From assembly GCA_009015555.1 (NCBI GenBank), contig GCA_009015555.1_3613.1: a stretch of 64,000 nucleotides of DNA; one strand, 5' to 3'. Position numbers and translations under genes: made by a program. Each line of letters begins with the position of its first letter. Positions within the stretch are counted from its first letter, which is position 1. Origin of the DNA: a phage. Below the pieces are notes generated by a model. The model was not told the DNA's origin and did no database searches. It saw only the letters and a program-made list of their open reading frames with translations. This document shows positions 2,410-59,024 of this stretch, piece by piece.

Positions 2410-2828
2410 ATTAACAGTGTTTACAGGGGTTGACTTGTTCGCCCCTTTTTTGTTATTCTTATGTCATGCGATGGCACCTGATGCAGGGGGAGACAAACAC
2501 CGGACCTGCCCGCTATTCAGGAAGGCAGACCGGACCTGGGCCGCGCCGGGCAGATGAGAATGATTATCATTTTCAACAAAATCAAATACATACTTTAAAA
2601 CCGTTGTCAAATTTATTTCCGTTTACTGTATAAATGTACATGCCCGCCAAACGCTCTAAATCGCGTTTTAAGCCGTTTTCCCCTTACCCGGTATCCTACA
2701 TCATAAAAATATAGATCTCCCGAAATCGGACTTTCGCACTTTTTGCCCTTGCAAACGTAAAATTTTTATGTTAGACCTGAAGGGCTGAAAGCCGGGTTTA
2801 CGTTGACAAAACTTTACAATTCTCCCTA

Positions 2829-2857
2829 TTGACGCCAGGAGGCGGATCGCTTATTCT
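2829..2857 (+). promoter_or_regulatory. sigma70-like promoter (TTGACG-17-TATTCT)
   Basis: -35/-10 pair ~50 nt upstream of ORF 2910; a second TTGACA lies 26 nt upstream. Confidence 0.35.
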
Positions 2858-2909
2858 TTACCACGTAGGGCGGCAATGACGCGACGGCCCACAGAGAGGA
2901 GACCGTAAA

Positions 2910-3281
2910 ATGAACCTGAACAATTTCAACCGCTACTACATCCGCGACGAACAGGCAAATGCTTTCGGGTATGATCGTTCGTTCGAAATGCAACAGCACG
3001 TAAACGGCGCAAAGTTACACGTTGAAACTGTTACCTTTGAAAACTATTTTATGGCGACCTTTGAAAGCGGCTTACAGATCTCTATTGAGTACAAAGGCGG
3101 CGTGATGACTCTCGCAACAGATGACAAATTACGCCGTAAAGATCTGTTATCACATCCGGGCTACGCAAGCAACAAAGCATTATTGATTAAAATCTATATC
3201 CGCTGGGTAGTGGGCCGCATCGCAACAGAAGAGGAGATCGCCGCCCTGGTAGATCTGGCCCTGAATCTGGATTTAAATTAA
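2910..3281 (+). CDS. hypothetical early protein (123 aa)
   Basis: Track ORF; RBS AGAGAGGAG. Confidence 0.6.
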   Translation: MNLNNFNRYYIRDEQANAFGYDRSFEMQQHVNGAKLHVETVTFENYFMATFESGLQISIEYKGGVMTLATDDKLRRKDLLSHPGYASNKALLIKIYIRWVVGRIATEEEIAALVDLALNLDLN

Positions 3282-3284
3282 TCG

Positions 3285-3313
3285 TTGACAAGGGGGCCGA
3301 AAGGCCCCATAAT
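3285..3313 (+). promoter_or_regulatory. sigma70-like promoter (TTGACA-17-CATAAT) with GGGGCC-GAAA-GGCCCC hairpin in spacer
   Basis: Consensus elements; same architecture repeated at 3673. Confidence 0.5.
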
Positions 3314-3358
3314 ACCCACTCAAGCAACAAACCACTAAAAACACTGGAGACCGTAAAA

Positions 3359-3670
3359 ATGACTAAATCAAAATTTTTCGAAATGCTGGATCGCTACCTG
3401 TCAAGCCATAACGAATGGGCGAAGTTAGGCAACGGCGGCAACGAATACACCGCCGCACAGTTAGAGGGCTATGTATTCCACGAAGATCCGGCCCGTTTGG
3501 CATCTTACAAAGAATCTGATCCGTCTTATCCGTGGGTTGCTCACGCTTCAGGCTTCACCCTTGCCGATTGTTGGCATGTTGAAGTGATGCAACACAAAAC
3601 AGCGGCAGCGGCAGAAAAGCAAGCTGAAATCTTCACCCGCTGGATCGAAGAGTACAAAAACAAAAAATAA
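3359..3670 (+). CDS. hypothetical early protein (103 aa)
   Basis: Track ORF with RBS GGAGA. Confidence 0.6.
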   Translation: MTKSKFFEMLDRYLSSHNEWAKLGNGGNEYTAAQLEGYVFHEDPARLASYKESDPSYPWVAHASGFTLADCWHVEVMQHKTAAAAEKQAEIFTRWIEEYKNKK

Positions 3671-3672
3671 TA

Positions 3673-3701
3673 TTGACTCAGGGGCCGAAAGGCCCCATAA
3701 T
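3673..3701 (+). promoter_or_regulatory. sigma70-like promoter (TTGACT-17-CATAAT) with GGGGCC-GAAA-GGCCCC hairpin in spacer
   Basis: Near-identical copy of promoter at 3285. Confidence 0.5.
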
Positions 3702-3735
3702 GCGATCTCACCCAACAAAACGGGATTAAGCCATA

Positions 3736-3981
3736 ATGAACCGCCTTTTTAAAATCAATCTTCCACTTTGGACCCTGGCGGCGGTCCTCATCGCGTTTTC
3801 TGGCGATACCGTAAACAACTGGATTTTATCCGCTGTACTCGGACCCGATCAAATGGTCACAACATTTTTAAACGCTTTCGGCGCTACACTGGCAACGGCC
3901 CGCCTGGCTTATCGTCGTAAATCCTTAAACCGTTATGATCTGGCGCTGGCACTGCCTGCCCTGGTTACCTGCCTTAACTAA
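3736..3981 (+). CDS. small membrane protein (81 aa)
   Basis: Track ORF; hydrophobic N-terminal segment; followed by terminator. Confidence 0.55.
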   Translation: MNRLFKINLPLWTLAAVLIAFSGDTVNNWILSAVLGPDQMVTTFLNAFGATLATARLAYRRKSLNRYDLALALPALVTCLN

Positions 3982-3998
3982 CATCATTCAGCCAAACA

Positions 3999-4029
3999 GG
4001 CCCGCCACCCCGGCGGGCTTTTCTTTTGT
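3999..4029 (+). terminator. rho-independent terminator
   Basis: GC-rich hairpin GGCCCGCC-ACCC-CGGCGGGC followed by TTTTCTTTT. Confidence 0.6.
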
Positions 4030-4299
4030 CCCCAACGTGGCAAGCCTGGAGGGCTACCCGGTCCGACTCCCCCAGTCAATAGCCCTTATCACTTCCATTT
4101 GTGGAAATCAACACTTAATTTTATTCACTTTAAAGCGCATAATTGAATAAACGAGGGGCTAACCCACTAGCCAGGGTTGAGAGTAGCGGCCCGCATAGGG
4201 CCTTACAGCGCGTTTTAGACCCTATTGACTTCTATCTGCAAACGTGTATCAGGCCAAAACTGACTAAATCACCTTTTCTTTACATAACTTGACACTATT

Positions 4300-4950
4300 T
4301 ATTCATTTATCTGCATAATGCGAGAATGATTCTCATTTACTATCAATAACTTAACTTTTTATTGACTTCTCAGAAAACACGGTTTTACGTTCCCACGGAT
4401 CAAGGGAGGGCGCGCCGGAGGCGCGACCAATAGAAAACAGGTAACGAACCCTCCCCCGTTGCTAGCTCGCAACGGTTTAGCGTTACGTTCCCACGGTCAA
4501 GGGATGACCGCTATCACCTGTTTTCTATTGGTCATTTGAAGGTGTAAACCTTCATAAAGTCAAGCCTTTTTAGTGCCTACAGGCACAAATACGAATTATT
4601 CTCATCTGCATAAAATCGTGTTTTATCTGCATAAATACGTAAACAGGCGGACCCGTACAGCGTAGCGGGGGCCGCATAGGCCCTACAGGGCAAGGGGCTT
4701 TATTGTGCGAAAAGTAAACGAAAGCGTAGCTTTTGCCTGGCAAAATTCACTCTTCGTGTCAAGCGAAAAATAATTTTTTTTTTCTTTTTGCGTAAACGAT
4801 AATGGTTCTCATCCGACAACCATTCTCAAAGGGCGAATGCGAATCATTCTCATTATCATGCCACAAGGTGAGTGAGACTCATTCTCATCTACGCCAGTGC
4901 TGGCGGGCCTCTCCACGTGTTGGGAATGATTATCATTATCCCGAGTGCGT
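4300..4950. repeat. array of imperfect palindromes built on ATTCTCAT / ATGAGAAT half-sites plus TTATCTGCATAA direct repeats
   Basis: At least six sites, e.g. GAGAATGATTCTCAT, AATGGTTCTCAT..AACCATTCTCA, TGAGACTCATTCTCAT, ATGATTATCAT; TCTGCATAA three times. Confidence 0.5.
4381..4535. repeat. nested repeat structure: 16-bp perfect inverted repeat (CCAATAGAAAACAGGT / ACCTGTTTTCTATTGG) flanking direct repeats TTACGTTCCCACGG(A)TCAAGGGA
   Basis: Read directly; additional GGGAGGG/CCCTCCC and GCGCGCC-GGA-GGCGCGC stems inside. Confidence 0.55.
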
Positions 4951-6169
4951 ATAAGGTGTATTATGTTAAATGGGGTATGGTGGCGTGATGCACAGTCGGA
5001 CCGATGAGTCAATAAGAGAAGTGTAAAGATGGGCAAGATGGTAGACATTTTGTGGAGATGATCACGTAAAGCGAGGGCCTACCCGGTCCGATTGAGGAAA
5101 AGCTGAGAGGGGCTAAGTCATTGATTCATAAGGATATTTGGGGAAAATAACGAGGCCCCTCCCCACCCCCTGATCGCCATGCCTGGCAGCAATATCCATA
5201 CGCTGAGATATTTTTCTGGTTTCTGGGCAAGAAGGGCCACCCCTGATCGCGTTCTAAAAATTTTGGCGGGAGGGTAAAAACACCAAAAAGTCAGGGTAGG
5301 TGAGCCTCTCCGGCTCCCTTGATATTTGGGCAATGTGGGAATACAGACGGGTACGTCTCTGTGGGACGGTTACTACCCGGCGGGAGAGGGCCTCCCGGAC
5401 GGGGTGGTGCACCAGCCTGTGGCACATGAGTTATGCACAGGTCTGCCTCTTTAGGCGACAGATGTGGCTCTACAGGTTTACCACTGTGGGAAACAAAATT
5501 GTGGGAGGGAGATACAAAAATACCGCCCGAAGGCGGTTTATAGATGAATTATTTGTCCACCGTGGCTCTCATATATCTTTCGGACAGACTCCAGATTTTG
5601 GGAGTATGTGGTCTCTGTGGGGCCATCCCTTAAAGAGGATGTACCGCAGGTTAGGATTTTCTTACACTCAAGCTCCGCCTTTGTTGCCATTCCGGGTGGG
5701 AACCGATATATGAACAATGGTGTAACCGTGTGGTCTGGATTGTTCCTCTGTAGTTGCCTTATCCTAATCTTTGGTGTGTGGGTAACACCAAACTTGATGC
5801 TCCCCTCACCGACATCAAGTATGTAGGCACAGTCAGGCGACATCCTGTTGGATCTTCGGGACACGACCGCCATTTTATCACGGACTGACAAGTCAACACC
5901 TGGGTTTCTGACTAGGCCCGGCACCAATATATCCGGGCACCTTTTCCTCTCGATCGCTGCCATCTTTTGACTCTGTTCTGAGTACCACTCGTTACCCGAG
6001 ATTGTTTTGTATTTGTTCATATGCGGCCCGCCGTGGGTAATACGCGATGTGTTTGATATTGTGGTGGGCGAGGAACATAGGTCCGACTCTCCAGGTGTGT
6101 TTTCATAAGTGTTCCTCTTTGGCATGTTTGGAATATGTGGGGAGTATACCTATGTTTGGGGAAGGGGTC

Positions 6170-6192
6170 AAGGGCCTTTCGGCCCTTTTTAT
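6170..6192 (+). terminator. rho-independent terminator (plus-strand orientation)
   Basis: Hairpin GGGCC-TTTC-GGCCC followed by TTTTTATA; on the minus strand no U-run follows. Confidence 0.45.
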
Positions 6193-6473
6193 AGGATTTC
6201 AAATTCCTTGCGGAACAGGTCACGCTGGTTGTTGATGAACACCCAGGATGCTACAGGGTGGTCTTCGGAGAAGTCGTCCTTCTCTACAGTGACCACATCG
6301 TATGGTGGGTATGTGAGTGCCTCTACCCGACTGTGGAATCGGTAGACCTTACCGACCACAAACCCGTACTCATTTCCCCTAAGACACCGGGCGGTGCCTA
6401 CGGAAGGGACAGGGCAGTACGCTGGCTTGTATGCCTTGGCCTTCTTGGGGACATTCCACTTATGCGCCGTCAT
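6189..6473 (-). CDS. hypothetical protein (94 aa); last gene of the leftward block
   Basis: Track ORF; ATGA overlap with upstream small ORF. Confidence 0.5.
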   Translation of the reverse strand: MTAHKWNVPKKAKAYKPAYCPVPSVGTARCLRGNEYGFVVGKVYRFHSRVEALTYPPYDVVTVEKDDFSEDHPVASWVFINNQRDLFRKEFEIL

Positions 6474-6613
6474 TCGATCGTCCTCCGTGCATAGTCATAA
6501 CCTTGCTGGAAGAAATCCCACAGGTCCTCAACGTAGGACTTATTGGGGTACTCTGACGGGTCCCAGCCTGTGTGCTCCTCAAAGTATTCGTTGAACTGCT
6601 CGCGTAGTGTCAC
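6470..6613 (-). CDS. small ORF (47 aa, GTG start, RBS GGAGG)
   Basis: Fills gap between two track ORFs with overlapping stop/start on both sides. Confidence 0.3.
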   Translation of the reverse strand: MTLREQFNEYFEEHTGWDPSEYPNKSYVEDLWDFFQQGYDYARRTIE

Positions 6614-6828
6614 AGGTAATCCTCCAACTTTTTGAGCCAGAAACCAGACAGGTCCCGGCGTCGTCTATCCACTGGGCCGCTATCCATGATCTGGTAGATA
6701 ACGCCGTCTCTCTGGTCCTCGAAGATACGCACGTCACAGTCCACATACAGATACCGCAGTTCTTTCTGTGTGAAGCCATACGTCGGATACCAGTCAGAGA
6801 CCTTGACCTCCGGAGGGACCTTAATCAT
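6610..6828 (-). CDS. hypothetical protein (72 aa)
   Basis: Track ORF. Confidence 0.5.
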   Translation of the reverse strand: MIKVPPEVKVSDWYPTYGFTQKELRYLYVDCDVRIFEDQRDGVIYQIMDSGPVDRRRRDLSGFWLKKLEDYL

Positions 6829-7184
6829 GAGGATGCCTTAAACCCGGCGTTCCAGCCGAAGTCGTAATCAGTTTTGGGATCACCGTTCGCGCCCTTGTAG
6901 CCGCCCGGCGGGCACTCACCCTCAAAGTGCTTCAGTGCGTCCACATACCCGATGTACCAGTCCTTGGGCTTGTCCTCTTTCGAGTACCAAGATTCGCGGA
7001 ATACGAACTCTCTCCACAGGTCTTGGATGACGGCGACGTGCTCCCGCTGGCAGCGGCTATACAGGTTGTTCCTGCCGTTGTACAGCATGTCAAAGACACG
7101 CTGCTCCAGCGCTGCCTCTTCGTCACTGTTCGGGATAATCGGATTGTACCCGGCATACGGGCTTCGGTCTTCGGTATTTTCCAC
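6825..7184 (-). CDS. hypothetical protein (119 aa)
   Basis: Track ORF; 4-nt overlap with downstream ORF. Confidence 0.55.
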   Translation of the reverse strand: MENTEDRSPYAGYNPIIPNSDEEAALEQRVFDMLYNGRNNLYSRCQREHVAVIQDLWREFVFRESWYSKEDKPKDWYIGYVDALKHFEGECPPGGYKGANGDPKTDYDFGWNAGFKASS

Positions 7185-17530: not shown

Positions 17531-18124
17531 TTAGTCAAAAGTCGTTTCACATTTATGCTGGAAACGTTCCAGTGCGATCGAGGTCCTTGGCTCCGCCAAT
17601 CCGGTCCCGTAAACATACGATTTTCCGGTCATGGTTTTACGCACACCGTATGATCCGAGTTCCAGATCTTCGTACATGACGTCGAACCCGTCCTCTGTCT
17701 CGATCACCTCTGTAGGCAGTGCATAAAACTCCCTCAGAAACTTCTGCATCTTCCCGGCGATCCACAGTGCATCCGTCCGGGTGTAGAAGTTGCTGTCATC
17801 ACTCAGCTTCATGAGTTCCAGTTTCAGGAACACAGGTAAGTGAGTTTCGTCAAGGATCGGCTCGTCACGGTAGCAAGGGGTCAACGCCATCCAACGCCCT
17901 GGTTTAAGTTTGCCCTCTTTCTCCAACTGGAGAAAAGATTGCTCCGCCGAGGCAACAACAGTATCCGGATATTTACCGTACAGGCGGGAATCATGTACGC
18001 CCGCCGGGCAGGTGTGAGACATAACATCCGGGTCTACAAGGGCCGGGACCTTTTTGGTCTCAAACCAAAGCCCCCACCAGTTAATCGCGTCACGTACCAG
18101 TGCCAAGTTCATAGGATATTTCAT
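17531..18124 (-). CDS. hypothetical protein with class-II aminoacyl-tRNA-synthetase-like motifs (tentative)
   Basis: Track ORF; motif-2-like CYRDE..HLPVF and motif-3-like GTGLAEPR; function unverified. Confidence 0.5.
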   Translation of the reverse strand: MKYPMNLALVRDAINWWGLWFETKKVPALVDPDVMSHTCPAGVHDSRLYGKYPDTVVASAEQSFLQLEKEGKLKPGRWMALTPCYRDEPILDETHLPVFLKLELMKLSDDSNFYTRTDALWIAGKMQKFLREFYALPTEVIETEDGFDVMYEDLELGSYGVRKTMTGKSYVYGTGLAEPRTSIALERFQHKCETTFD

Positions 18125-18125
18125 A

Positions 18126-18386
18126 TTACCCCCTGTGCCCGTTTTCGAATACTCGGCGGGTAATGCCGGAGAACTTTTTCAGGTCTTCCATCTTGAACCC
18201 CGGGTAGTTTTCCTCCAAGAATCCTTGCATGGCCCCGTAAAGATCAGACATCTCGACAAGAATCATGACGTGACTGCCCTGACGGTGTGCATCGACCAGT
18301 TCCTCGACCTCCTCTTGAATCTTGCCGAGAGATCCGAAACGGCGCTTTTCTATTTTGTCCAGATGATAACCAGGTTTATCTTGCAC
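18126..18386 (-). CDS. MazG/HisE-like all-alpha NTP pyrophosphohydrolase (tentative)
   Basis: Track ORF; EEVEEL...EMSDLYGA pattern. Confidence 0.45.
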   Translation of the reverse strand: MQDKPGYHLDKIEKRRFGSLGKIQEEVEELVDAHRQGSHVMILVEMSDLYGAMQGFLEENYPGFKMEDLKKFSGITRRVFENGHRG

Positions 18387-18395
18387 TTTCTCCTC

Positions 18396-18896
18396 CTATG
18401 GGCAGCAGCGCGGCCCTCCACCACAATAATATTGCCAGCTTCTACCCCCGTGGTAGTTTACTGGCCCTGCTCTCTCACACCCTGACCCGCTGCACCCCTC
18501 TTCCATAATGTGGTAGTCGATGGAACATGAGTGTGGATGGTCCAGCATATCGAGGATCTCAAAACAAAGTCCTCTCAACCATATAAAGTGATTATGCTCG
18601 CATACCTCCAACAAGTCAATCTCTTGTTTTGTCGGTTTTGCCGGATTCTCAAAATACGGGTATGATTTCCATCCAGTAATGACATGGATAACCTTACCGT
18701 CCTTTACCTCATAATCCACGCTCTCAACCAGCCTGATCGAAACCTCTTGGATTACCTCTGTGCAACTTGATCCGTAATCAGGATTTGCCTTCCCTGTGCG
18801 AATGTTTTCCTCTATCCAAGAGATAACCGGGCTTTTGGCCCGGTGTGTATCGACAGACAGGAGATGCGCCATTCTCCCGTTAGTCATTGTGACCAT
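18396..18896 (-). CDS. Cys/His-rich hypothetical protein
   Basis: Track ORF; CEHNH, HPHSC, CSGSGC, CGGGPRCC clusters. Confidence 0.5.
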   Translation of the reverse strand: MVTMTNGRMAHLLSVDTHRAKSPVISWIEENIRTGKANPDYGSSCTEVIQEVSIRLVESVDYEVKDGKVIHVITGWKSYPYFENPAKPTKQEIDLLEVCEHNHFIWLRGLCFEILDMLDHPHSCSIDYHIMEEGCSGSGCERAGPVNYHGGRSWQYYCGGGPRCCP

Positions 18897-20008
18897 GCAG
18901 CATCCTGTACATTGAGGATCAGTTCTTCCGCCAATCGCTTGTTGCTGTTCTTCGGCAGCTTACTCTCGTGGTAGAGAACTTCACGGATCAGTTTGTCCTT
19001 GTCCGATGCCCACTCAACGATGTCCTCGTAACTGTGGGTTCCGTTACGAATGCCCAGCAGTTCCTCTGCGTCCGGGCGGCGAACGATGACCTGCCCCGTT
19101 TCAAGGATTTCCTGTCCCATACGGAGCAGGCGCACCAAGTGCATGGCGTGTTTGGTGTCGTAACCGAACTTCTCCTCCAGCTCATGCCGGGCGGCGTTAC
19201 GGTTCTTCACCCACTGCCAGTAGTTGTGGTGCTTATCCTTGGCAACCGTGTGATCCTGACGAAGATATTTAACGATGAACAACGGCGGCTGCTTTTTCAC
19301 AGACTCTGGGATCTCATCGTACTGCAATTTACGGATCGACCCGTCGGGGTTGAACATCGGCCCAACATCTTCACGGTGGTCCGGTACTACGCCATAGATG
19401 TCCGCCCCGAACGGCACCAACGTGCAGACACCCTGCATATTGTTCAGCTTACGCATGAAGTCTTCGTGCTTCAGCACCTTCACGTCGAGGTAGCTCTGTA
19501 CCAAACGGAAGAACTCAAGTTGGGTCGGCTTTTCTTCCGGCATCGGGTTGTTGATATGCTTGTTGTGACCCTTGATGCGTTTCAACTGCGCCATCGCATA
19601 ACCGCCGAAGCGGTAGGCCACGTTTTTGTTCAGCAGTTGCGGCAGGAAGGACTTCAAATAGTCCCACGCCGGATGCTTGTACAGAGTCGCCTGATCATCA
19701 GTGAAGCCCAGTTCAATGATATTTGGGTTCATGTCGCAGAACAACTCCATGAAGTTGTTCAGTTCGTAAACCTTTCCATCTTCCTCGTCCTCGATCCCCA
19801 TCTCACGGAGGGTTCGGAAAGGTGCCCGGATTACTCCCGGGCGGGCAACGATGATGCCACGAATATCAGTGTCGCTAGTCGGCGTCGCCGTCCCATACGC
19901 ATGAGATCCTGCGAGACATAGCATCAGCACCTTCGATACGTCTTTGTGACTTTCCAGCTTCTCGACGATGCTTTTTACCCTTCCATTTGTCACAATGGTA
20001 TTTTCCAT
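18884..20008 (-). CDS. nucleotidyltransferase-fold protein (Pol-beta superfamily signature GS..G...SDTD)
   Basis: Track ORF 18884..20041; start at in-frame ATG (MENTIV). Confidence 0.6.
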   Translation of the reverse strand: MENTIVTNGRVKSIVEKLESHKDVSKVLMLCLAGSHAYGTATPTSDTDIRGIIVARPGVIRAPFRTLREMGIEDEEDGKVYELNNFMELFCDMNPNIIELGFTDDQATLYKHPAWDYLKSFLPQLLNKNVAYRFGGYAMAQLKRIKGHNKHINNPMPEEKPTQLEFFRLVQSYLDVKVLKHEDFMRKLNNMQGVCTLVPFGADIYGVVPDHREDVGPMFNPDGSIRKLQYDEIPESVKKQPPLFIVKYLRQDHTVAKDKHHNYWQWVKNRNAARHELEEKFGYDTKHAMHLVRLLRMGQEILETGQVIVRRPDAEELLGIRNGTHSYEDIVEWASDKDKLIREVLYHESKLPKNSNKRLAEELILNVQDAAWSQ

Positions 20009-43819: not shown

Positions 43820-44022
43820 TTCGTCACCCCTTTTGCGATATTTTCGATTCGTTGGCGAAGGATCTCTTCGCCCGGTATTGGCCCGGCCTTAATAAATTCA
43901 CGGGCCTCTGGAAATTCAGTCTCCGGAAGTGCATTCAGGATCTGTTTCAGAAAACACAAAGCCTGCATACGGTGCCCATCGAACTGAAGCGCAAGGTCTC
44001 GCCATTTCATTTCTGTACTCAC
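43816..44022 (-). CDS. hypothetical protein (68 aa)
   Basis: Track ORF. Confidence 0.45.
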   Translation of the reverse strand: MSTEMKWRDLALQFDGHRMQALCFLKQILNALPETEFPEAREFIKAGPIPGEEILRQRIENIAKGVTK

Positions 44023-44522
44023 TTTGCCCCCATCGCTTTCGATATGTCGTCCAAATACTGAGTCTGTGTCTTGTCATCGTCCGGCAGGCGGAGGATGTCG
44101 GCACCCCAGCGGTTGGCGTTCATCATGATGTGCAGCGGACCGCGCCGCCATTCGCCGTACCATGCACTAAGTTTGTCGTGCTCTTTGTGCATACTGTCCA
44201 ACTGGTCAATAAGATAATACGCATGATTCAGGAACTTTGCAACCAATTTCACAATATTTTCGTACTTCGGTGGAAACGGGTTGTACTCGAACATCTTATC
44301 CAGAATAACCATCTCGCGGACCATCTCACGAACGGTGCCGATCGGGTTGGCTACCGGGGCGTTCTCCCAGTTGAAGCGGTAAAGAGACTCACAGATTTCC
44401 TTGCAGCGCTTCTCCTTCTTCTCTTGGCTCTTTGGAGCTTGGAAGAAGATCTCTGCTGGAGGGTAGATGGATACGTTGTTGATCCACTTTTCAATGAAGG
44501 CCAGGTTGATACTGTTGCTCAT
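44019..44522 (-). CDS. hypothetical protein (167 aa)
   Basis: Track ORF. Confidence 0.55.
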   Translation of the reverse strand: MSNSINLAFIEKWINNVSIYPPAEIFFQAPKSQEKKEKRCKEICESLYRFNWENAPVANPIGTVREMVREMVILDKMFEYNPFPPKYENIVKLVAKFLNHAYYLIDQLDSMHKEHDKLSAWYGEWRRGPLHIMMNANRWGADILRLPDDDKTQTQYLDDISKAMGAK

Positions 44523-44591
44523 GATATTTCCTCTTTCGTTGTTTGATGGGAGTAGTATACAGGAGGGGAGGCAGGAGTCAAGAGGCAGATA

Positions 44592-44620
44592 AAGAAAAAC
44601 CGCCCCGAAGGGCGGTTCTT
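44592..44620 (-). terminator. rho-independent terminator
   Basis: ACCGCCC-TTCG-GGGCGGT followed by TTTTTCTTT on minus strand. Confidence 0.55.
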
Positions 44621-44902
44621 TTAGTATTGATCTTCAGCGTAGCGGCGCTGATTTTCTGTGTTATCCACGTCCTTTAGCGTAAAGTTGTACTGCTCGCTAC
44701 GGACTGGGGCCGGGCGCGGTGTCGGGTCCAGATGGGCCAGCTTGACACCCGGCGGAATTTCATTGATGGTGAACGTGGTGTTGACCAGTTGTCCAGCCAG
44801 TTCATCCATACGCATGGAAACGAAGGCGGCTACGGAACGACCTTCACGGTCAGCCAGGAAACGCAGTTTTTCGAAGGTTGCATCGTTGAAGTTAATGTTC
44901 AT
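44621..44902 (-). CDS. ribbon-helix-helix-like DNA-binding protein (tentative)
   Basis: Track ORF; N-terminal beta-strand/helix pattern FEKLRFLADREGRSVAAFV. Confidence 0.45.
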   Translation of the reverse strand: MNINFNDATFEKLRFLADREGRSVAAFVSMRMDELAGQLVNTTFTINEIPPGVKLAHLDPTPRPAPVRSEQYNFTLKDVDNTENQRRYAEDQY

Positions 44903-44974
44903 ATTGTAAATCTCCTTTCTGAATTATGTTTGGGTTAACCGCCCCCGTAGGGGCGGGGTACTGCACAGCGGGTA

Positions 44975-45292
44975 TTACTCGCCGTCTTCTTCAGAAGCGC
45001 GGCCCATCAGGATGTCCAGTTCGTTAAGCTGCTCAATCTGGCCTTCCAGCGCCGCACGTTTCTTCTCAGCGGCGTCCTGCTTGTCGTACTCGCCGTTGAT
45101 CAGGGTTCGCAGGAATTTCGGATCGATGTTCAGATCTTCTTTGGTGATCGCCAGGATGCTTTTCAGGTCTTCTGCGGCGTCCTTCTGCTTACGAATCGCA
45201 TCAACACCTTCCTGAACGATATTTGCAAGGCGCTTACGTACAGCCGGGTCAGAAGGCAGGGTGTTCAGCAGTTCAACTTTTACTTTAGCCAT
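44975..45292 (-). CDS. hypothetical protein (105 aa)
   Basis: Track ORF. Confidence 0.55.
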   Translation of the reverse strand: MAKVKVELLNTLPSDPAVRKRLANIVQEGVDAIRKQKDAAEDLKSILAITKEDLNIDPKFLRTLINGEYDKQDAAEKKRAALEGQIEQLNELDILMGRASEEDGE

Positions 45293-45366
45293 TTGTGTTA
45301 CTCCTCTTCAGTGAATGTGTGAGCATTATGCTCGTTTTAACTCAGTGTGTCAACAACTTTTTGAAA

Positions 45367-45543
45367 CTATCGGACGAACATTCGACCTTGTTCAAAATAT
45401 CCATTCTTAATGCCCCGAGGGGCAGAAAGAGACTGTACCGCAGTAGCACCACAATTGCAAGTGGCAGTTTTGCGGTCTGCAATCTTTCGATTCTTGTCAA
45501 ATACTGCCCCGCACCCGGGGCATTTGTAAGAATACGTCGGCAT
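45367..45543 (-). CDS. FmdB-type zinc-ribbon protein (58 aa, MPTYSYKCPGCG...CNCG)
   Basis: Hand-translated; TAATG overlap with MazG stop; below track size cut-off. Confidence 0.5.
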   Translation of the reverse strand: MPTYSYKCPGCGAVFDKNRKIADRKTATCNCGATAVQSLSAPRGIKNGYFEQGRMFVR

Positions 45544-55477: not shown

Positions 55478-55553
55478 GCTGGATTAGCTCAGTAGGTAGA
55501 GCGCCTCACTTGTAATGAGGATGTCGCGGGTTCGATTCCTGCATCCAGCACCA
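55478..55553 (+). tRNA. tRNA-Thr (anticodon TGT)
   Basis: Cloverleaf by hand: acceptor GCTGGAT/ATCCAGC, loop CTTGTAA, T-loop GGTTCGATTCC, encoded CCA. Confidence 0.8.
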
Positions 55554-55559
55554 GATCAT

Positions 55560-55636
55560 GCAACGTTGCCGGAGTCTGGTAACGGCTCTCGCTGCAAACG
55601 AGATGAGCACTGGTTCGAATCCAGTACGTTGCTCCA
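55560..55636 (+). tRNA. tRNA-Cys (anticodon GCA)
   Basis: Acceptor GCAACGT/ACGTTGC, loop CTGCAAA, T-loop GGTTCGAATCC, CCA. Confidence 0.8.
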
Positions 55637-55637
55637 A

Positions 55638-55714
55638 GCGCCTTTGGTCCAATTGGTAGAGGCACTACATTCAAAATGTAGGGGTTCCCAGTTCGAATCT
55701 GGGAAGGCGCACCA
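55638..55714 (+). tRNA. tRNA with Leu anticodon CAA but short (5-nt) variable arm; identity uncertain
   Basis: Acceptor GCGCCTT/AAGGCGC, anticodon stem CTACA/TGTAG, loop TTCAAAA, T-arm CCCAG-TTCGAAT-CTGGG, A73, CCA. Confidence 0.55.
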
Positions 55715-55730
55715 AAATTTATGTAACCTA

Positions 55731-55759
55731 TTGACATAGTGTAATTATACTGCTAATAT
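55731..55759 (+). promoter_or_regulatory. sigma70-like promoter (TTGACA-17-TAATAT)
   Basis: Consensus -35, good -10, upstream of ORF 55786. Confidence 0.5.
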
Positions 55760-55785
55760 GGATACACTAATTCAATGGGGGCATT

Positions 55786-56160
55786 ATGAGCAAGGCTGCG
55801 ATTGTAACTCGTAAGCGTGGTCGCCCAAGCAAAGAAGAGAGCACAGCAATCGCCCTTGAAAAGGCAATGCTTGATCTCCGAGGCGAATTGGCCCGTCTGA
55901 CGCCGAAGGCCATTCATACTCTCGAAAACCTGCTCACAACAGGCACAGAGAAAGTGAAGGAAACCACGGCGAAGTATATCCTTGAGCAGGCGAAAGAGGT
56001 TAACAACCTCTATACTGAAGAGGATAACGAAGACGACGCAGCAGGCGGCACAACATCTGCCTCTTCTGAAACTCACGCTGGTTCTTCTGACGAGATGAAA
56101 AATGCCATCCCGTTGACAACCCAGATTCGTGAGTATAAAGCAGTAGGCGAAGATGATTAA
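55786..56160 (+). CDS. small basic/acidic protein with AT-hook-like RKRGRPSK motif
   Basis: Track ORF; own promoter and terminator inside tRNA cluster. Confidence 0.55.
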   Translation: MSKAAIVTRKRGRPSKEESTAIALEKAMLDLRGELARLTPKAIHTLENLLTTGTEKVKETTAKYILEQAKEVNNLYTEEDNEDDAAGGTTSASSETHAGSSDEMKNAIPLTTQIREYKAVGEDD

Positions 56161-56163
56161 CTG

Positions 56164-56190
56164 GAAGGCTCCCGAAGGAGCCTTTATTAG
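56164..56190 (+). terminator. rho-independent terminator
   Basis: AGGCTCC-CGAA-GGAGCCT then TTTATT. Confidence 0.5.
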
Positions 56191-56325
56191 AAGTTCTCTT
56201 TTGACGGGCACTTGTTAACGACCCGCAGAATGACGACGGTGTACAACGGCGTTTGATGGCGAGGAAGGTCTATAGGGATCAGCGCAGATCCTTGGATGTC
56301 AGGTGAGCCGTACAAAAGAGAATTT

Positions 56326-56413
56326 GGGGAGTTATTTCCGTAGAGGTAGCGGTGCAGACTGTAAATCTGTTGTCATTGCGACTCGGGTGGTTCGACTCCA
56401 TCACTCCCCACCA
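56326..56413 (+). tRNA. tRNA-Tyr (anticodon GTA), long variable arm
   Basis: Loop CTGTAAA, variable arm GTCATTGCGACTC, T-loop GGTTCGACTCC, CCA. Confidence 0.8.
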
Positions 56414-56419
56414 AATTAT

Positions 56420-56514
56420 AGTAGGATGGCTGAGTGGCTTAAAGCAGCATCTTGGAAAGGTGTCGGATCAGGTAACCCCTGGTCCCGGGAGTTCAAATCT
56501 CCCTCCTACTGCCA
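56420..56514 (+). tRNA. tRNA-Ser (anticodon GGA), type II
   Basis: Acceptor AGTAGGA/TCCTACT, D-loop GAGTGGCTTAA, loop TTGGAAA, long variable arm, CCA. Confidence 0.75.
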
Positions 56515-56518
56515 GACC

Positions 56519-56595
56519 GGATCGTTAGCTCAATTGGTTAGAGCAAGGGACTTTTAATCCCGAGGTTCGGGGTTCGAGTCCCTGACGGTCCACCA
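56519..56595 (+). tRNA. tRNA-Lys (anticodon TTT)
   Basis: Acceptor GGATCGT/ACGGTCC, loop CTTTTAA, T-loop GGTTCGAGTCC, CCA. Confidence 0.8.
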
Positions 56596-56760
56596 GAAAG
56601 GAAGAGGGTCCAAGCTGGTAATGCGAGAGGCGAGTCCTCAGACCAAAGCCCAGATGGAGGCCACCCTAAAGTCGTCCAACCGAAGGTCCCTGATTGAGTA
56701 ATACTTCCCCGCTTGTCGGGTACAGTTCTCAGTCACACCGGAAGGGGCGCACCCTATAAT

Positions 56761-56836
56761 TGACGGTGAGCATATAAGGACATGCGGGGGCCTGTTAAGT
56801 CCAGGATAGCTGGTTCGAATCCAGTACCGTCAGCCA
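56761..56836 (+). tRNA. tRNA-Asn (anticodon GTT)
   Basis: Acceptor TGACGGT/ACCGTCA, loop CTGTTAA, T-loop GGTTCGAATCC, CCA. Confidence 0.75.
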
Positions 56837-56945
56837 ATTTGGTTCCGACAAGGTGACGGCGCACCCCGGAGCGACGCTGAAAGATGCAGGCCGACGAACA
56901 CATACGTGTACTTAATCAATAGTCATTGCGATGGCTATTCGTTAA

Positions 56946-57023
56946 GTCCTGGTAGACAAACTGGATAAAGTCACCACCCTTTCAAGGTGGGGTTTGAGGG
57001 TTCGATCCCCTCTCAGGACGCCA
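56946..57023 (+). tRNA. tRNA-Glu (anticodon TTC)
   Basis: Anticodon stem CCACC/GGTGG, loop CTTTCAA, T-loop GGTTCGATCCC, CCA. Confidence 0.75.
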
Positions 57024-57117
57024 ATCTTTTAGGTCGGTAGATTAATGAGCAAAGGCCGCTCGCTGGATTCCAACCCCAGTTCAAGGCGTTCGATTCGTCA
57101 CCTTCCTGCCAAATTCA

Positions 57118-57193
57118 GGTCCTATGGTATTAGCGGTAAACATACTCGCCTGTCACGCGAGAGTCACGGGTTCGAATCCCGTTAGGACCGCCA
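57118..57193 (+). tRNA. tRNA-Asp (anticodon GTC)
   Basis: Acceptor GGTCCTA/TAGGACC, loop CTGTCAC, T-loop GGTTCGAATCC, CCA. Confidence 0.8.
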
Positions 57194-57200
57194 CTTCAAA

Positions 57201-57275
57201 TGGGGATTAGCTCAGGGGTAGAGCGCACAACTGATAATTGTGAGGTCGGTGGTTCGAAACCACCATCCCCAACCA
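57201..57275 (+). tRNA. tRNA-Ile (anticodon GAT)
   Basis: Acceptor TGGGGAT/ATCCCCA, loop CTGATAA, T-loop GGTTCGAAACC, CCA. Confidence 0.8.
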
Positions 57276-57345
57276 AACAGCCCCTCCCGGGATTGGACCG
57301 GGTTAACGGCAATCGCACACTGAGGCGTCTTCCGGGGGAACAATA

Positions 57346-57422
<77 letters not shown>

Positions 57423-57428
57423 AATTAT

Positions 57429-57503
57429 TGCGAGGTAGTTCAGCGGTAGAACAGGGGTTTCATACGCCTCATGTCGGCAGTTCGATTCTGCCCTTCGCAA
57501 CCA
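57429..57503 (+). tRNA. tRNA-Met (anticodon CAT; initiator/elongator/Ile-lysidine not resolved)
   Basis: Acceptor TGCGAGG/CTTCGCA, loop TTCATAC, T-loop AGTTCGATTCT, CCA. Confidence 0.7.
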
Positions 57504-57509
57504 AATCAT

Positions 57510-57587
57510 GCTCCAGTAGCCCAATTGGTAGAGGCACTTGATTTAGGATCATGTCAGCGATGAGTTCGAATCTCTCCTGGAGTACCA
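57510..57587 (+). tRNA. tRNA-like gene with Leu anticodon TAG, short variable arm and weak T-stem; identity uncertain
   Basis: Acceptor GCTCCAG/CTGGAGT, D-arm CCAATTGGTAGAGG shared with 55638 tRNA, loop TTTAGGA, A73, CCA. Confidence 0.45.
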
Positions 57588-57593
57588 CATAAA

Positions 57594-57667
57594 GCGGGCA
57601 TGGTATAGTGGTTGTGCCTTAGCCTTCCAAGCTAATGAGTCCGGTTCGATCCCGGATGTCCGCTCCA
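57594..57667 (+). tRNA. tRNA-Gly (anticodon TCC)
   Basis: Acceptor GCGGGCA/TGTCCGC, stem TTAGC/GCTAA, loop CTTCCAA, T-loop GGTTCGATCCC, CCA. Confidence 0.8.
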
Positions 57668-57740
57668 ATTCACGGTGAGTCACTGCCGTTAAGTGTGAAG
57701 TTAAAAATGCCCGTGGTGATCGGGTTATCTCACCCAGTGT

Positions 57741-57816
57741 AGGGGATTAGTTTAATTGGTAAAACATCGGGTTTTGATCCCGACATCGCGAGGTTCGAAT
57801 CCTCCATCCCCCGCCA
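57741..57816 (+). tRNA. tRNA-Gln (anticodon TTG)
   Basis: Stem TCGGG/CCCGA, loop TTTTGAT, T-loop GGTTCGAATCC, CCA; 1-72 is A-C mismatch. Confidence 0.7.
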
Positions 57817-57898
57817 CATTAATGCTCATTAGCTCTTGTCAGTGGAACTCGAACCCTTAGAGCAGGCGACACAGACGTGTGTTTTAGTGAGCATCAAT

Positions 57899-57974
57899 GT
57901 GGCCTTAATTCAGCAGGTAGAATCCCCGGTTGTGAACCGGGCAGTCGTGGGTTCAAGTCCCACAGGTCACCCCA
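57899..57974 (+). tRNA. tRNA-His (anticodon GTG)
   Basis: Acceptor GTGGCCT/AGGTCAC, stem CCCGG/CCGGG, loop TTGTGAA, C73, CCA. Confidence 0.8.
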
Positions 57975-57978
57975 ATCT

Positions 57979-58071
57979 GGAAGATAGGGCGTAGTGGTAC
58001 GCACCCGGATTTGAACCCCGGCCCGCTGTGGCGACCCCACGGTGATAGTTCGACTCTATTATCTTCCGCCA
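57979..58071 (+). tRNA. tRNA-Ser (anticodon TGA), type II
   Basis: Collinear with bacterial tRNA-Ser(UGA): acceptor GGAAGAT, loop TTTGAAC, long variable arm, ...TTCC-G-CCA end. Confidence 0.7.
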
Positions 58072-58092
58072 CCCCTGATCATAAGGCAAACT

Positions 58093-58785
58093 ATGTTAGA
58101 AATGTTAACAGTGGGTAAATACACCCCTAGTCCTATAATTTCTAGCCCTATGGATGCTTATTTTGAGGGCGAGAGGAATAATAAATACGGCACTGTTGAG
58201 TGGGTTGTTCCTCAAGGCGTCACCTCAATCTGCTGTGTAGTGATAGGCGCAGGATCTTCTGGCAGAAGCGGCGGTCTTTCTTGGAGAAACAACATTCCAG
58301 TTACACCTGGTGAAAAACTTAAAATGCAGGTTAACTCCACAGCCAGCGCCCTCTTGAGAGAGACAACTATCCTTTGTGCTGCCCAGTGTGGCGGCAACGG
58401 AGGAAAAACATATAACTCTGTGAACGACGGTGGAGGCAATGCTGGACAATCACCACATGGTAGAGGTGGTGCTGGCGGCTACACCGGGAATGGTGGTGAT
58501 GGGCATACGTTCACAGGTGGTCCAGGACCAGGGTCCCCAGGTTCAGGTGGCGGCGGCGGCGGAGGCGCAGTTGTGTATCTGAACGGATCATTGACACCAA
58601 CTGTCTGCGGCGGAGTCGGCATGTATGGACAGGGGTCGAATGGTGGCGCTGATAACAGCGCCGGATATCCAGGCTCCGGCGGTTCTGGAACAAGATACGG
58701 AAGAGCAGTCGATGGTTATGGTGTTGTCAGGGTTGTGTGGGGAAATTATTCATTCCCAACAAATGCCCCGAGACCGAAATCCTGA
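58093..58785 (+). CDS. glycine-rich repeat protein (GGxGG tracts, poly-Gly run) embedded in tRNA cluster
   Basis: Track ORF 58042..58785; start at ATG after AAGG just downstream of tRNA-Ser. Confidence 0.5.
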   Translation: MLEMLTVGKYTPSPIISSPMDAYFEGERNNKYGTVEWVVPQGVTSICCVVIGAGSSGRSGGLSWRNNIPVTPGEKLKMQVNSTASALLRETTILCAAQCGGNGGKTYNSVNDGGGNAGQSPHGRGGAGGYTGNGGDGHTFTGGPGPGSPGSGGGGGGGAVVYLNGSLTPTVCGGVGMYGQGSNGGADNSAGYPGSGGSGTRYGRAVDGYGVVRVVWGNYSFPTNAPRPKS

Positions 58786-58856
58786 TAGGGATGGTCCCTA
58801 CGAGGATCGTCTTTTGCTCAGTGGTACTCAGCATTTACTTAGTATTCAAACAATAT

Positions 58857-58943
58857 AGAAGAGTGGCGAAATAGGTAGCCGCACCGGACTGCTAATCCGG
58901 GGTCCTTCGGGGCCTGAGAGTTCAAGTCTCTCCTCTTCTGCCA
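58857..58943 (+). tRNA. tRNA-Ser (anticodon GCT), type II
   Basis: Acceptor AGAAGAG/CTCTTCT, stem CCGGA/TCCGG, loop CTGCTAA, long variable arm, CCA. Confidence 0.75.
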
Positions 58944-58948
58944 AGCAT

Positions 58949-59024
58949 GGAACTGTAGCTCAGTTGGTAGAGCGGTTGCCTGAAGAGCAGCGCGTCAGCG
59001 GTTCAAATCCGTTCAGTTCCACCA
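58949..59024 (+). tRNA. tRNA-Phe (anticodon GAA)
   Basis: Acceptor GGAACTG/CAGTTCC, D-arm TAGCTCAGTTGGTAGAGC, loop CTGAAGA, T-loop GGTTCAAATCC, CCA. Confidence 0.8.

Follow-up and report, generated by a model that had tools for sequence, protein, structure and literature searches.

A conserved non-coding locus with phased Fur-like boxes and a covarying structured element in rV5-like virulent phages

The subject of this work is a gene-free locus in a 64,000-nucleotide phage sequence (NCBI GenBank assembly GCA_009015555.1, contig GCA_009015555.1_3613.1; hereafter the window), which belongs to the genus Certrevirus of the subfamily Vequintavirinae, the rV5-like virulent myoviruses with genomes of ~150 kb. 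An earlier note, made from the sequence alone, had flagged positions 4030-6169 as a single structured island without open reading frames (ORFs) that was probably transcribed. We found that the flagged 2.1 kb is in fact two separate things, a non-coding part at ~4030-5520 and a leftward gene cassette at 5522-6192, and that the real feature is restricted to the former, which we take for a non-coding control locus common to Vequintavirinae. This island combines an early-type promoter, a phased array of predicted boxes for Fur, which regulates iron in the host, and a folded element of ~180 nt, here called S, whose helices covary among related phages. Tentatively, and with somewhat less than even confidence, we read it as a rightward early transcription unit of the host RNA polymerase that would make a non-coding RNA and would be gated by Fur.

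A non-coding locus shared by Vequintavirinae

In the 12 kb around the flagged stretch, the window shares 95% identity with Cronobacter phage CR3 and 93% with CR8. Small early-type genes run towards the stretch from both sides. Those of the plus strand stop at 3981, the last one encoding an 81-aa protein (PHROG 20190), and those of the minus strand end at 6189 with a 94-aa protein (PHROG 21706). As had been noted, the stretch starts right after the terminator that follows the rightward early operon. However, the view of one continuous 2.1-kb element ending at 6170-6192 had to be abandoned; the natural right end of the non-coding island is a conserved bidirectional terminator much further to the left. 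The two borders are as follows:

3998-4026, plus strand: intrinsic terminator of the rightward early operon and left island border, called by a terminator scan and kept in relatives
5522-5537, no strand assigned: bidirectional terminator hairpin ACCGCC-CGAA-GGCGGT, right island border, called as a minus-strand terminator

An equivalent of this second hairpin, with variants in its stem, is present at the matching position in relatives.

That ~4030-5520 is non-coding follows from an island alignment of 15 relatives. No stop-free frame is common to all 15, the six candidate ORFs give flat codon-position counts with no excess of third-position change (25/28/25 changes for 4802-4954 on the plus strand, 37/41/45 for 4809-5048 on the minus strand), and 34 of the 181 indel runs (19%) are divisible by three. 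Searches of the candidate ORFs in 4030-5520 against Pfam and PHROG gave no match, and neither tRNA nor tmRNA was found in the island. For this part, the earlier statement that there is no credible ORF stands, and so does the suggestion that we are not looking at decayed coding sequence: the left 1.5 kb is conserved non-coding DNA. In favour of small unannotated or decayed genes one could cite the ORFs of 30-80 aa that several depositors annotated here as small hypothetical proteins (F1M1E, KaOmega, CR3 and P7_Pc records), together with a 52-codon frame at 4796-4951 that is open in 11 of the 15 relatives. The annotated ORFs, however, vary from record to record, the 52-codon frame coincides with a near-invariant array of Fur-like boxes, and the lack of codon periodicity, of indels in threes and of family matches leaves this explanation hardly credible.

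Across ~30 certreviruses the identity of the island is 82-91%, in a mosaic pattern of near-invariant blocks between variable hairpins. Syntenic gaps, sparse in or free of ORFs, exist in four other lineages (rV5, Mydovirus, Seunavirus and SSBI34), extending over 2.6 kb in rV5, from ORF 163 to ORF 164, and over ~1.8 kb each in Mydovirus KPP-1 and Seunavirus SPLA5a, and the order of blocks matches in Salmonella phage SSBI34, rV5, KPP-1 and SPLA5a. The rV5 gap was drawn as a 'non-coding' box in a paper that says it has no ORFs and gives no function or features for it (Kropinski et al. 2013, PMC3606486), and no function for the region was reported in the literature searched. The rV5 box is like our island in its position between convergent operons, in element S, in the Fur-like boxes, in a GTGCGYATAA...TTAAAT block and in the GATATTT and CTCTTCAGG tail motifs, but it is longer and has arrays of short direct repeats. 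About ten direct repeats of CTGTTTAC-type units are found beside S at 2900-3140 of the retrieved rV5 locus, and the Vequintavirus strain ECP2303 has a TGACAC array beside S, the repeat arrays thus differing between strains. The proposal of an RNA of the GOLLD, ROOL or intron type found no support in a covariance search of 3500-7000 on both strands (Rfam 15 cmscan, E≤1), which also covered 6S, Y RNA and all other families and returned only a terminator-like Trp_leader match, at the left border terminator, with 24 bits for a gathering score of 41.

An early-type promoter and phased Fur-like boxes

The recognisable gene promoters of this phage (3285 and 3673) have the form TTGACA/TTGACT-17-CATAAT and enclose a GGGGCCGAAAGGCCC hairpin between the two hexamers. 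The promoter-like elements that had been noticed in the island are indeed there, as TTGACT at 4225, TTGACA at 4289 and TTGACT at 4362, and the second of them opens a promoter, P3, which is nearly invariant in 12 certreviruses and is kept in SSBI34 with an 18-nt spacer.

In addition, a repeated AATGATTCTCATT motif matches the Fur box, with 14 occurrences in the window against 0.76 expected. Sites were scored as matches out of 19 to the consensus GATAATGATAATCATTATC, with expected counts from simulation. The island holds seven Fur-like sites at ≥13/19, four at ≥14 and three at ≥15, where 0.35, 0.05 and 0.01 were expected, and eight of the nine sites scoring ≥14/19 in the 64 kb scanned fall within the first 5 kb. 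The sites at 4922 and 2556 score highest, with 17/19, and those at 4322 and 4839 reach 15/19. The features concerned are:

4289-4319, plus strand: promoter P3, TTGACA, 19-nt spacer, CATAAT, with the same hexamers as promoters 3285 and 3673
4322-4340, no strand assigned: Fur box 1, GAGAATGATTCTCATTTAC, 15/19, beginning 3 nt past the P3 -10 and covering the expected start site
4590-4634, plus strand: Fur-like box (4590-4608) over the first of two ATCTGCATAA -10-like motifs (4604-4613 and 4625-4634)
4792-4940, no strand assigned: Fur-like array in a 6-bp register, found by consensus scoring (4792/4798, 4833/4839, 4868 and, at 17/19, 4922)

Box 1 scores 14-16/19 at its position in all relatives, and its place just past the -10 is the classical position of a repressor. 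The box at 4590-4608 overlaps a TGCATAAA motif. Overlapping pairs 6 bp apart occur at 4792/4798, 4833/4839, 1445/1451 and 2550/2556, with equivalents in every relative, and such a spacing of 6 bp (or 3) is typical of the footprinted Fur clusters of Escherichia coli (Chen et al., PMC2189734). The positions of the Fur-like sites are kept in relatives, with scores up to 18/19. Moreover, the Pectobacterium phages phiTE, CB7, PcCB7V and DU_PP_IV carry an extra module near the equivalent of ~4615, between the two ATCTGCATAA motifs, made of a hairpin, then GATAATGAGAATCATTATC (18/19), then another hairpin. The number of boxes varies between lineages, since PcCB7V has two copies of this module (18/19 and 17/19). 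Phased Fur-like boxes (16/19) are also found in Mydovirus and Seunavirus.

The island thus resembles the Fur-repressed promoters of enterobacteria (iucA, fhuA, fhuF, ryhB) in its 19-bp boxes of the consensus type, in their 6-bp register and in a box lying directly downstream of a predicted sigma-70 -10. It differs from them in that it belongs to a virulent phage, has no iron gene or any other gene downstream and favours a GAGAAT half-site. Sequence match and enrichment together make these boxes predicted Fur sites.

Outside the island, a second gene-poor stretch of ~500 bp lies in the early region (window 2410-2909) and contains the 17/19 Fur-like box at 2556-2574. This box overlaps a 14-codon ORF, ATGAGAATGATTATC... 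(MRMIIIFNKIKYIL), and ATGAGAATGATTATC also starts a 74-aa ORF at 1449.

Element S, a covarying fold

The description of the whole stretch as highly structured applies only to the ~180 nt of S, where the consensus fold reaches about -53 to -59 kcal/mol; elsewhere in the island consensus folds lie between 0 and -17 kcal/mol. The GC hairpins that had been pointed out do exist, as GGCCC-GCATA-GGGCC at 4188-4202 and GGGCC-GCATA-GGCCC at 4670-4684, but they are not of the GNRA type, their loops being the 5-nt GCATA. The parts of S are:

4383-4566, plus strand: structured element S, ~180 nt, defined by fold z-scores, covariation and a covariance model
4388-4409, plus strand: hairpin Ha
4412-4424, plus strand: hairpin H1
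4425-4442 with 4516-4533, plus strand: long-range stem P1, 18 bp, arms 73 nt apart
4457-4474, plus strand: inner hairpin H2
4494-4510, plus strand: a further hairpin
4537-4554, plus strand: variable hairpin H3

As a single sequence, S gave minimum free energy z-scores of -5.9 on the plus and -7.1 on the minus strand. From a 13-sequence alignment, RNAalifold derived 47 pairs in six helices, 7 of them changed on both sides, and 99.2% of the alignment cells were paired against 38-47% in slid controls. None of 500 shuffles reached this covariation, and slid controls had at most one pair with a double change. Compensatory changes among related phages, which the earlier note had named as a check, are therefore present in a folded element that covariation supports. 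Within the genus, H2 occurs with four stem variants, all of them Watson-Crick, and P1 is compensated in CR9 and phiTE, a matched deletion included. S also contains 21-nt direct repeats, in two copies only, at 4387 and 4485.

Beyond the genus, a covariance model built from the S alignment finds rV5 at 26 bits, blast recovered the rV5-type S in 120 Vequintavirus genomes, with no annotation under the match in nearly all records listed, and pattern scans of IMG/VR added four usable loci with an S homologue. The same model returned nothing at E≤0.01 on the Mydovirus and Seunavirus loci, where the architecture was recognised by eye and by an exact inverted-repeat search. In five lineages (seven genomes checked) the arms of P1, of 17-20 bp, are perfectly complementary and divergent in sequence, reading GACCAATAGAAAACAGGT in Certrevirus, GACATAATATAAAAGCAG in Vequintavirus, GCGACACAATAACACGGGAG in Mydovirus and GCGACACTATAACACGAGGG in Seunavirus. 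Every lineage has, before P1, a GC hairpin and a small hairpin present twice in the locus, and TAAC after it. Since no Rfam family matches S, we regard it as a candidate for a new structured motif of RNA or DNA.

Two details hint at the plus strand. A U.G wobble stands at the same place of Ha in Certrevirus and rV5, beside three pairs with compensatory changes, and in phiTE and DU_PP_IV the H3 stem is extended by G.U. The unpaired junction after P1 (4443-4457) reads AACCCUCCCCC in the window and GGAUCACCCCC in most relatives and resembles the 3' end of 16S rRNA (GGAUCACCUCC); to judge from this likeness, it could pair with G-rich sequences of the Shine-Dalgarno kind.

S was also considered as an inverton, that is, an invertible promoter switch, and this was discarded, as 24 of 26 records of the Certrevirus type and 118 of 120 from Vequintavirus match S as one collinear piece in a single orientation. 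The record of Cronobacter phage PBES 02 lacks exactly 75 bp between the P1 arms (the equivalent of 4442-4516), ending at the left arm and restarting at the right one. We rejected real ends or an inversion as its cause and consider an assembly break at the hairpin more likely, because all other genomes are collinear in one orientation.

The remainder of the locus

Four further features complete the island:

4341-4353, plus strand: match to the IHF consensus TATCAATAACTTA, with ATCAATAACTTAA invariant in a 12-genome alignment
4764-4807, no strand assigned: A+T-richest tract of the island, 80% over 40 nt, including a T10 run, conserved
4945-4971, plus strand: block GTGCGTATAAGGTGTATTATGTTAAAT, invariant in certreviruses
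4972-5521, plus strand: tail rich in G, with short repeats confined to one strand (GATATTT at 5133, 5207 and 5321; TGTGGG four times; CTCTTYAGG)

A second match to the IHF consensus at 5114 brings the island total to two, against 0.1 expected. DnaA-box-like 9-mers with at most one mismatch number 13, against 2.9 expected from the density in the window, with a perfect TTATGCACA at 5431, and GATC is depleted (8 against 19 expected). The GTGCGTATAAGGTGTATTATGTTAAAT block is also found in rV5, SSBI34, KPP-1 and SPLA5a. The tail has a GC skew of +0.12 to +0.15, within a region G-rich on the plus strand from 4600 to 5500, and the direct repeat CCCCTGATCGC that had been reported in it was found at 5167 and 5240. 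GATATTT occurs in the tail as 3-5 copies on the plus strand and none on the other in five lineages, where ≤0.1 would be expected. Across the window it is found 17 times against 6.7 expected, with loose clusters at 17968-19724 and 43837-45401; a role as general promoter motif was considered, and these copies lie mostly inside coding regions.

Several known kinds of element were compared with the island and set aside. A host promoter captured together with its Fur regulation was searched for by blastn of 4270-4990 against 5,426 E. coli genomes, with only a borderline 33-nt match, possibly due to chance: 4944-4976 matches plasmid pO111_1 at 30/33 (E 0.2). The matching sequence is unannotated, lies ~115 bp upstream of an ISNCY-family transposase gene and occurs in 16 E. 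coli genomes (13 plasmids and 3 chromosomes). For an RNA sponging CsrA, neither GGA nor ANGGA is enriched in the tail of any lineage. A 9-nt TTGCTCACA that relatives share with the RyhB core is at chance level and absent from the window, which disposed of a RyhB mimic. As for a mimic of CRISPR repeats, the hairpins with GCATA loops resemble those of type I-F only loosely, without the stem bases read by Cas6f. The pseudo-ToxI of phiTE lies at 106.7 kb, between genes 202 and 203 (PMC3475682), the island corresponding to 48.6-51.1 kb of that genome, and no tandem 36-nt ToxI-like repeat was found in the island. Finally, a packaging or terminus region, as the earlier note had contemplated, is unlikely. 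Records that start in the region begin at three different, apparently arbitrary points, and Certreviruses were reported to be circularly permuted, with no degraded BAL-31 bands and headful packaging (PMC7344957, PMC3475682).

A proposed Fur-gated unit and its rivals

The reading as a rightward, Fur-gated non-coding unit is favoured because the early-type promoter and the terminators are on the plus strand, the tail repeats are strand-specific, the hairpins covary and conservation is collinear as far as the terminator. Following this proposal, P3 (TTGACA-N19-CATAAT) would fire like the other early promoters of the phage, and when iron is plentiful Fur-Fe2+ bound to the box past its -10 and to the phased boxes at 4590 and 4792-4940 would repress or block transcription. 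Iron scarcity, or the dilution of Fur by replicating phage DNA, would then allow transcription through S and the G-rich tail, which would stop at the bidirectional terminator at 5522-5537, with the hairpin at 6171-6190 as a back-stop. S may act in such a transcript as a plus-strand RNA. Our guess is that the product would regulate in cis or in trans, with the duplicated Ha hairpin and the repeated tail motifs as binding sites for a protein of the phage or the host. A more ambitious version, where an expandable array would titrate Fur or sense it and would control a structured RNA of a new class (S plus the tail) that reprograms the host or phage replication under iron limitation, seems to us distinctly unlikely.

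Several observations weigh against a Fur-gated RNA. The weak folds outside S have many broken pairs, the minus strand of S folds equally well, and there is no G.U among ~130 P1 base pairs across seven genomes. Such a G.U-free stem is unusual for an RNA helix and fits a hairpin at the DNA level or in single-stranded DNA. The spacer of P3 has 19 nt against 17 in the gene promoters, and a promoter-like site of the minus strand, with CTTGACT at 4564-4558, TCAAAT at 4539-4534 and H3 in its spacer, would fire into S. In Mydovirus and Seunavirus some of the Fur-like boxes lie inside S, so part of S would be read as double-stranded DNA. Moreover, the core of the phage boxes, GAGAAT-N-ATTCTC, departs symmetrically from GATAAT-N-ATTATC, and a phage-encoded protein could for this reason be their ligand instead of Fur. 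No transcript data for any relative were found in the literature searched.

Foremost among the rivals is a replication origin activated by transcription, in the style of ColE1 RNA II, T4 oriF/oriG or the primary origin of T7, which we judge rather unlikely. There, an RNA from the early promoters would open or prime the DNA at the A+T tract and the G-rich region, S would form its hairpin either in the primer RNA or in the single strand that is displaced, and host IHF, DnaA and Fur would modulate firing. The IHF matches, one of them invariant, and the excess of DnaA-box-like 9-mers, with its perfect copy, agree with this, as do the position of the A+T tract downstream of promoter-like motifs (4289, 4604 and 4625), the wholly Watson-Crick P1, as expected of a DNA hairpin, the repeats of the CTGTTTAC type in rV5 and the TGACAC array of the other strain. 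The G-rich plus strand would favour R-loops, which are established for ColE1. Like ColE1 RNA II/RNA I and T4 oriF/oriG, the island has a promoter, a structured domain and a G-rich region by an A+T tract, and a possible antisense promoter faces its structured domain. The likeness is one of sequence features, however, and transcription converges on the island instead of running co-directionally, so that departing forks would meet it head-on at both sides. Also against an origin, the repeat arrays vary between strains and genera, the window having just the two copies of the 21-nt repeat, GATC is rarer than expected, the neighbouring genes include no evident initiator, and the DnaA-like count is inflated by a TCTGCATAA motif and by the low G+C of the left half. 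A skew change reported at the rV5 region would fit an origin, although the rV5 authors ascribe skew changes to the direction of transcription (PMC3606486). We also rejected a theta origin of the iteron type (pSC101, P1 oriR, R6K). These have three or more direct repeats of ~17-22 bp beside an initiator gene, and here we find two copies of 21 nt and no adjacent gene with a family assignment. In our analysis, an origin and a Fur-gated RNA need not exclude each other; in ColE1 RNA II and T4 oriF, the structured transcript itself can be the origin function.

Other rivals dispense with an RNA product. The inverted repeats and hairpins could be promoter-spacer stem-loops and protein sites of the kind flanking exchangeable cassettes. 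The island between the two operons would then act at the DNA level only, as a hub where early promoters, terminators and joints for recombination come together. In this line, the GGGGCCGAAAGGCCC hairpin lies in the promoter spacers at 3285 and 3673 and beside the cassette promoter at 6171, H3 falls within the spacer of the promoter-like site on the minus strand, various relatives have endonuclease genes or other cassettes inserted at the right edge, and GGTCCGACTC and GGSCTACCCGGTCCGA are found as short repeats at 4051/4060, 5076 and 6080. Nevertheless, such a hub leaves unexplained the compensatory changes within the genus in H2, P2 and P1, the architecture of S kept over five sequence-divergent lineages, the strand-specific tail repeats and 1.5 kb free of genes in more than 140 genomes, which makes it an improbable account. 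In a further reading, the clustered boxes would serve chiefly as a Fur decoy. With the increase of phage DNA they would draw off the Fur of the host, inducing its iron uptake and RyhB and making iron available to the phage ribonucleotide reductase. It is known that multicopy Fur boxes titrate Fur (FURTA; PMC2189734). The boxes are clustered and phased, some (2556, 4792-4890) overlap no recognisable promoter, Mydovirus and Seunavirus have boxes elsewhere in the locus, and the gain of an 18/19-box module by Pectobacterium phages, in two copies in PcCB7V, suggests selection for more sites. With only ~7-10 sites per genome, a lytic cycle of tens of minutes that may be too short for a payoff in iron uptake, and no explanation for S, the tail motifs and the terminators, a role chiefly as decoy appears very doubtful.

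The right-hand cassette and its surroundings

To the right of the bidirectional terminator, the statement that there is no credible ORF was wrong for 5538-6125, because an endonuclease-like ORF is found there with its own promoter, ribosome-binding site (RBS) context and terminator, the last at 5537-5522. The cassette consists of:

5538-6020, minus strand: endonuclease-like ORF matching PHROG 681, 160 aa from the ATG at 6020, which is probably its start (195 aa if the start is at 6125)
6017-6106, minus strand: truncated 29-aa ORF, its first residues matching the N-terminus of a 109-128-aa gene product of KaOmega and CR9
6143-6171, minus strand: leftward promoter TTGACC-17-TATACT found by a promoter scan, followed by the RBS AAAGAGGAA
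6171-6190, plus strand: terminator, hairpin GGGCC-TTTC-GGCCC plus T-run, abutting the -35 of the leftward promoter

For the longer ORF, the PHROG search gave family 681 'endonuclease' with E 6e-12, and Pfam gave a weak match to the GIY-YIG-related MUG113 (13.2 bits, below the 22.3 cut-off). The ORF has one homologue at 50% identity, and a PDB sequence search gave no match. The stop of the 29-aa ORF overlaps its ATG (ATGA). The segment at ~6079-6190, with a hairpin GGGCC-GAAA-GGCCC, promoter, RBS and ATG, is common to F1M1E, KaOmega and CR9, where its counterpart drives the gene for 109-128 aa and the promoter is conserved upstream of different genes. The cassette is absent from CR3, CR8 and P7_Pc. 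The endonuclease-like gene has thus replaced most of a small early gene, within a separate, ordinary leftward cassette of ~0.65 kb. The terminator noticed at the right end, working only in the plus orientation, was confirmed as the hairpin and T-run at 6171-6190 and belongs to the cassette border; its GGGCCGAAAGGCCC hairpin is also found in the spacers of promoters 3285 and 3673.

Endonuclease genes and other cassettes occupy the right edge of the island in different relatives, phiTE and CB7 having an HNH endonuclease gene nearby on the opposite strand. The free-standing homing endonuclease genes of Certrevirus, CB7_143 and phiTE_097 (HNH; PMC7344957), are likewise right-edge inserts variably present among close relatives, but the gene in the window is not of the HNH class, lies on the other strand, has replaced a different neighbour and weakly resembles the GIY-YIG-related MUG113/T5orf172 type.

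In the early promoters at 3285-3319 and 3673-3701 a GGGGCCGAAAGGCCC stem-loop sits between the -35 and -10, and the same hairpin abuts the cassette promoter at 6171-6184. Similar units of promoter and stem-loop border the exchangeable cassettes of T4-type phages. Short repeats of GGSCTACCCGGTCCGA and GGTCCGACTC(C/T)CC are found at 4051-4072, 4993-5006, 5076-5091 and 6080-6092, and could be joints for cassette exchange.

Elsewhere in the window, 18 tRNA genes are clustered on the plus strand at 55478-59024, CR3 having been reported with 18 tRNAs (PMC7344957), and the 123-aa protein encoded upstream of the island (2910-3281) is a homologue of T4 gp30.7, with homologues in ~300 phage records, including T4-like phages of Klebsiella, Yersinia and Serratia.

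Significance

The ingredients of this locus (Fur boxes, phage non-coding RNAs and origin-like regions) are known singly, and it is their combination that is new, namely a phased Fur-box array together with a structured element shared across genera, in a gene-free locus of strictly virulent phages. Boxes for host factors are known in virulent phages from the pho boxes of cyanophages, and a Fur box is found in the stx1 promoter of lambdoid phages. As would happen in the island, there a phage borrows a nutrient-sensing regulator of its host to time transcription; those boxes, however, control protein-coding genes, whereas the target in the island is non-coding and its boxes are arrayed.

Phages of the rV5 type are widely isolated and are candidates for therapy and biocontrol against E. 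coli, Salmonella, Klebsiella, Cronobacter and Pectobacterium. The largest region without genes in these phages has stood unexplained since the rV5 genome paper, and what was a blank box now yields testable hypotheses built on an early promoter, Fur boxes in phase and a fold that five lineages have kept. If the locus were a replication origin, it would be the first for the subfamily and a handle for engineering. If Fur gating is true, a strictly lytic phage would read or manipulate the iron status of its host through a non-coding locus, which would bear on how these phages perform where iron is scarce, as in infected tissue or plant wounds.

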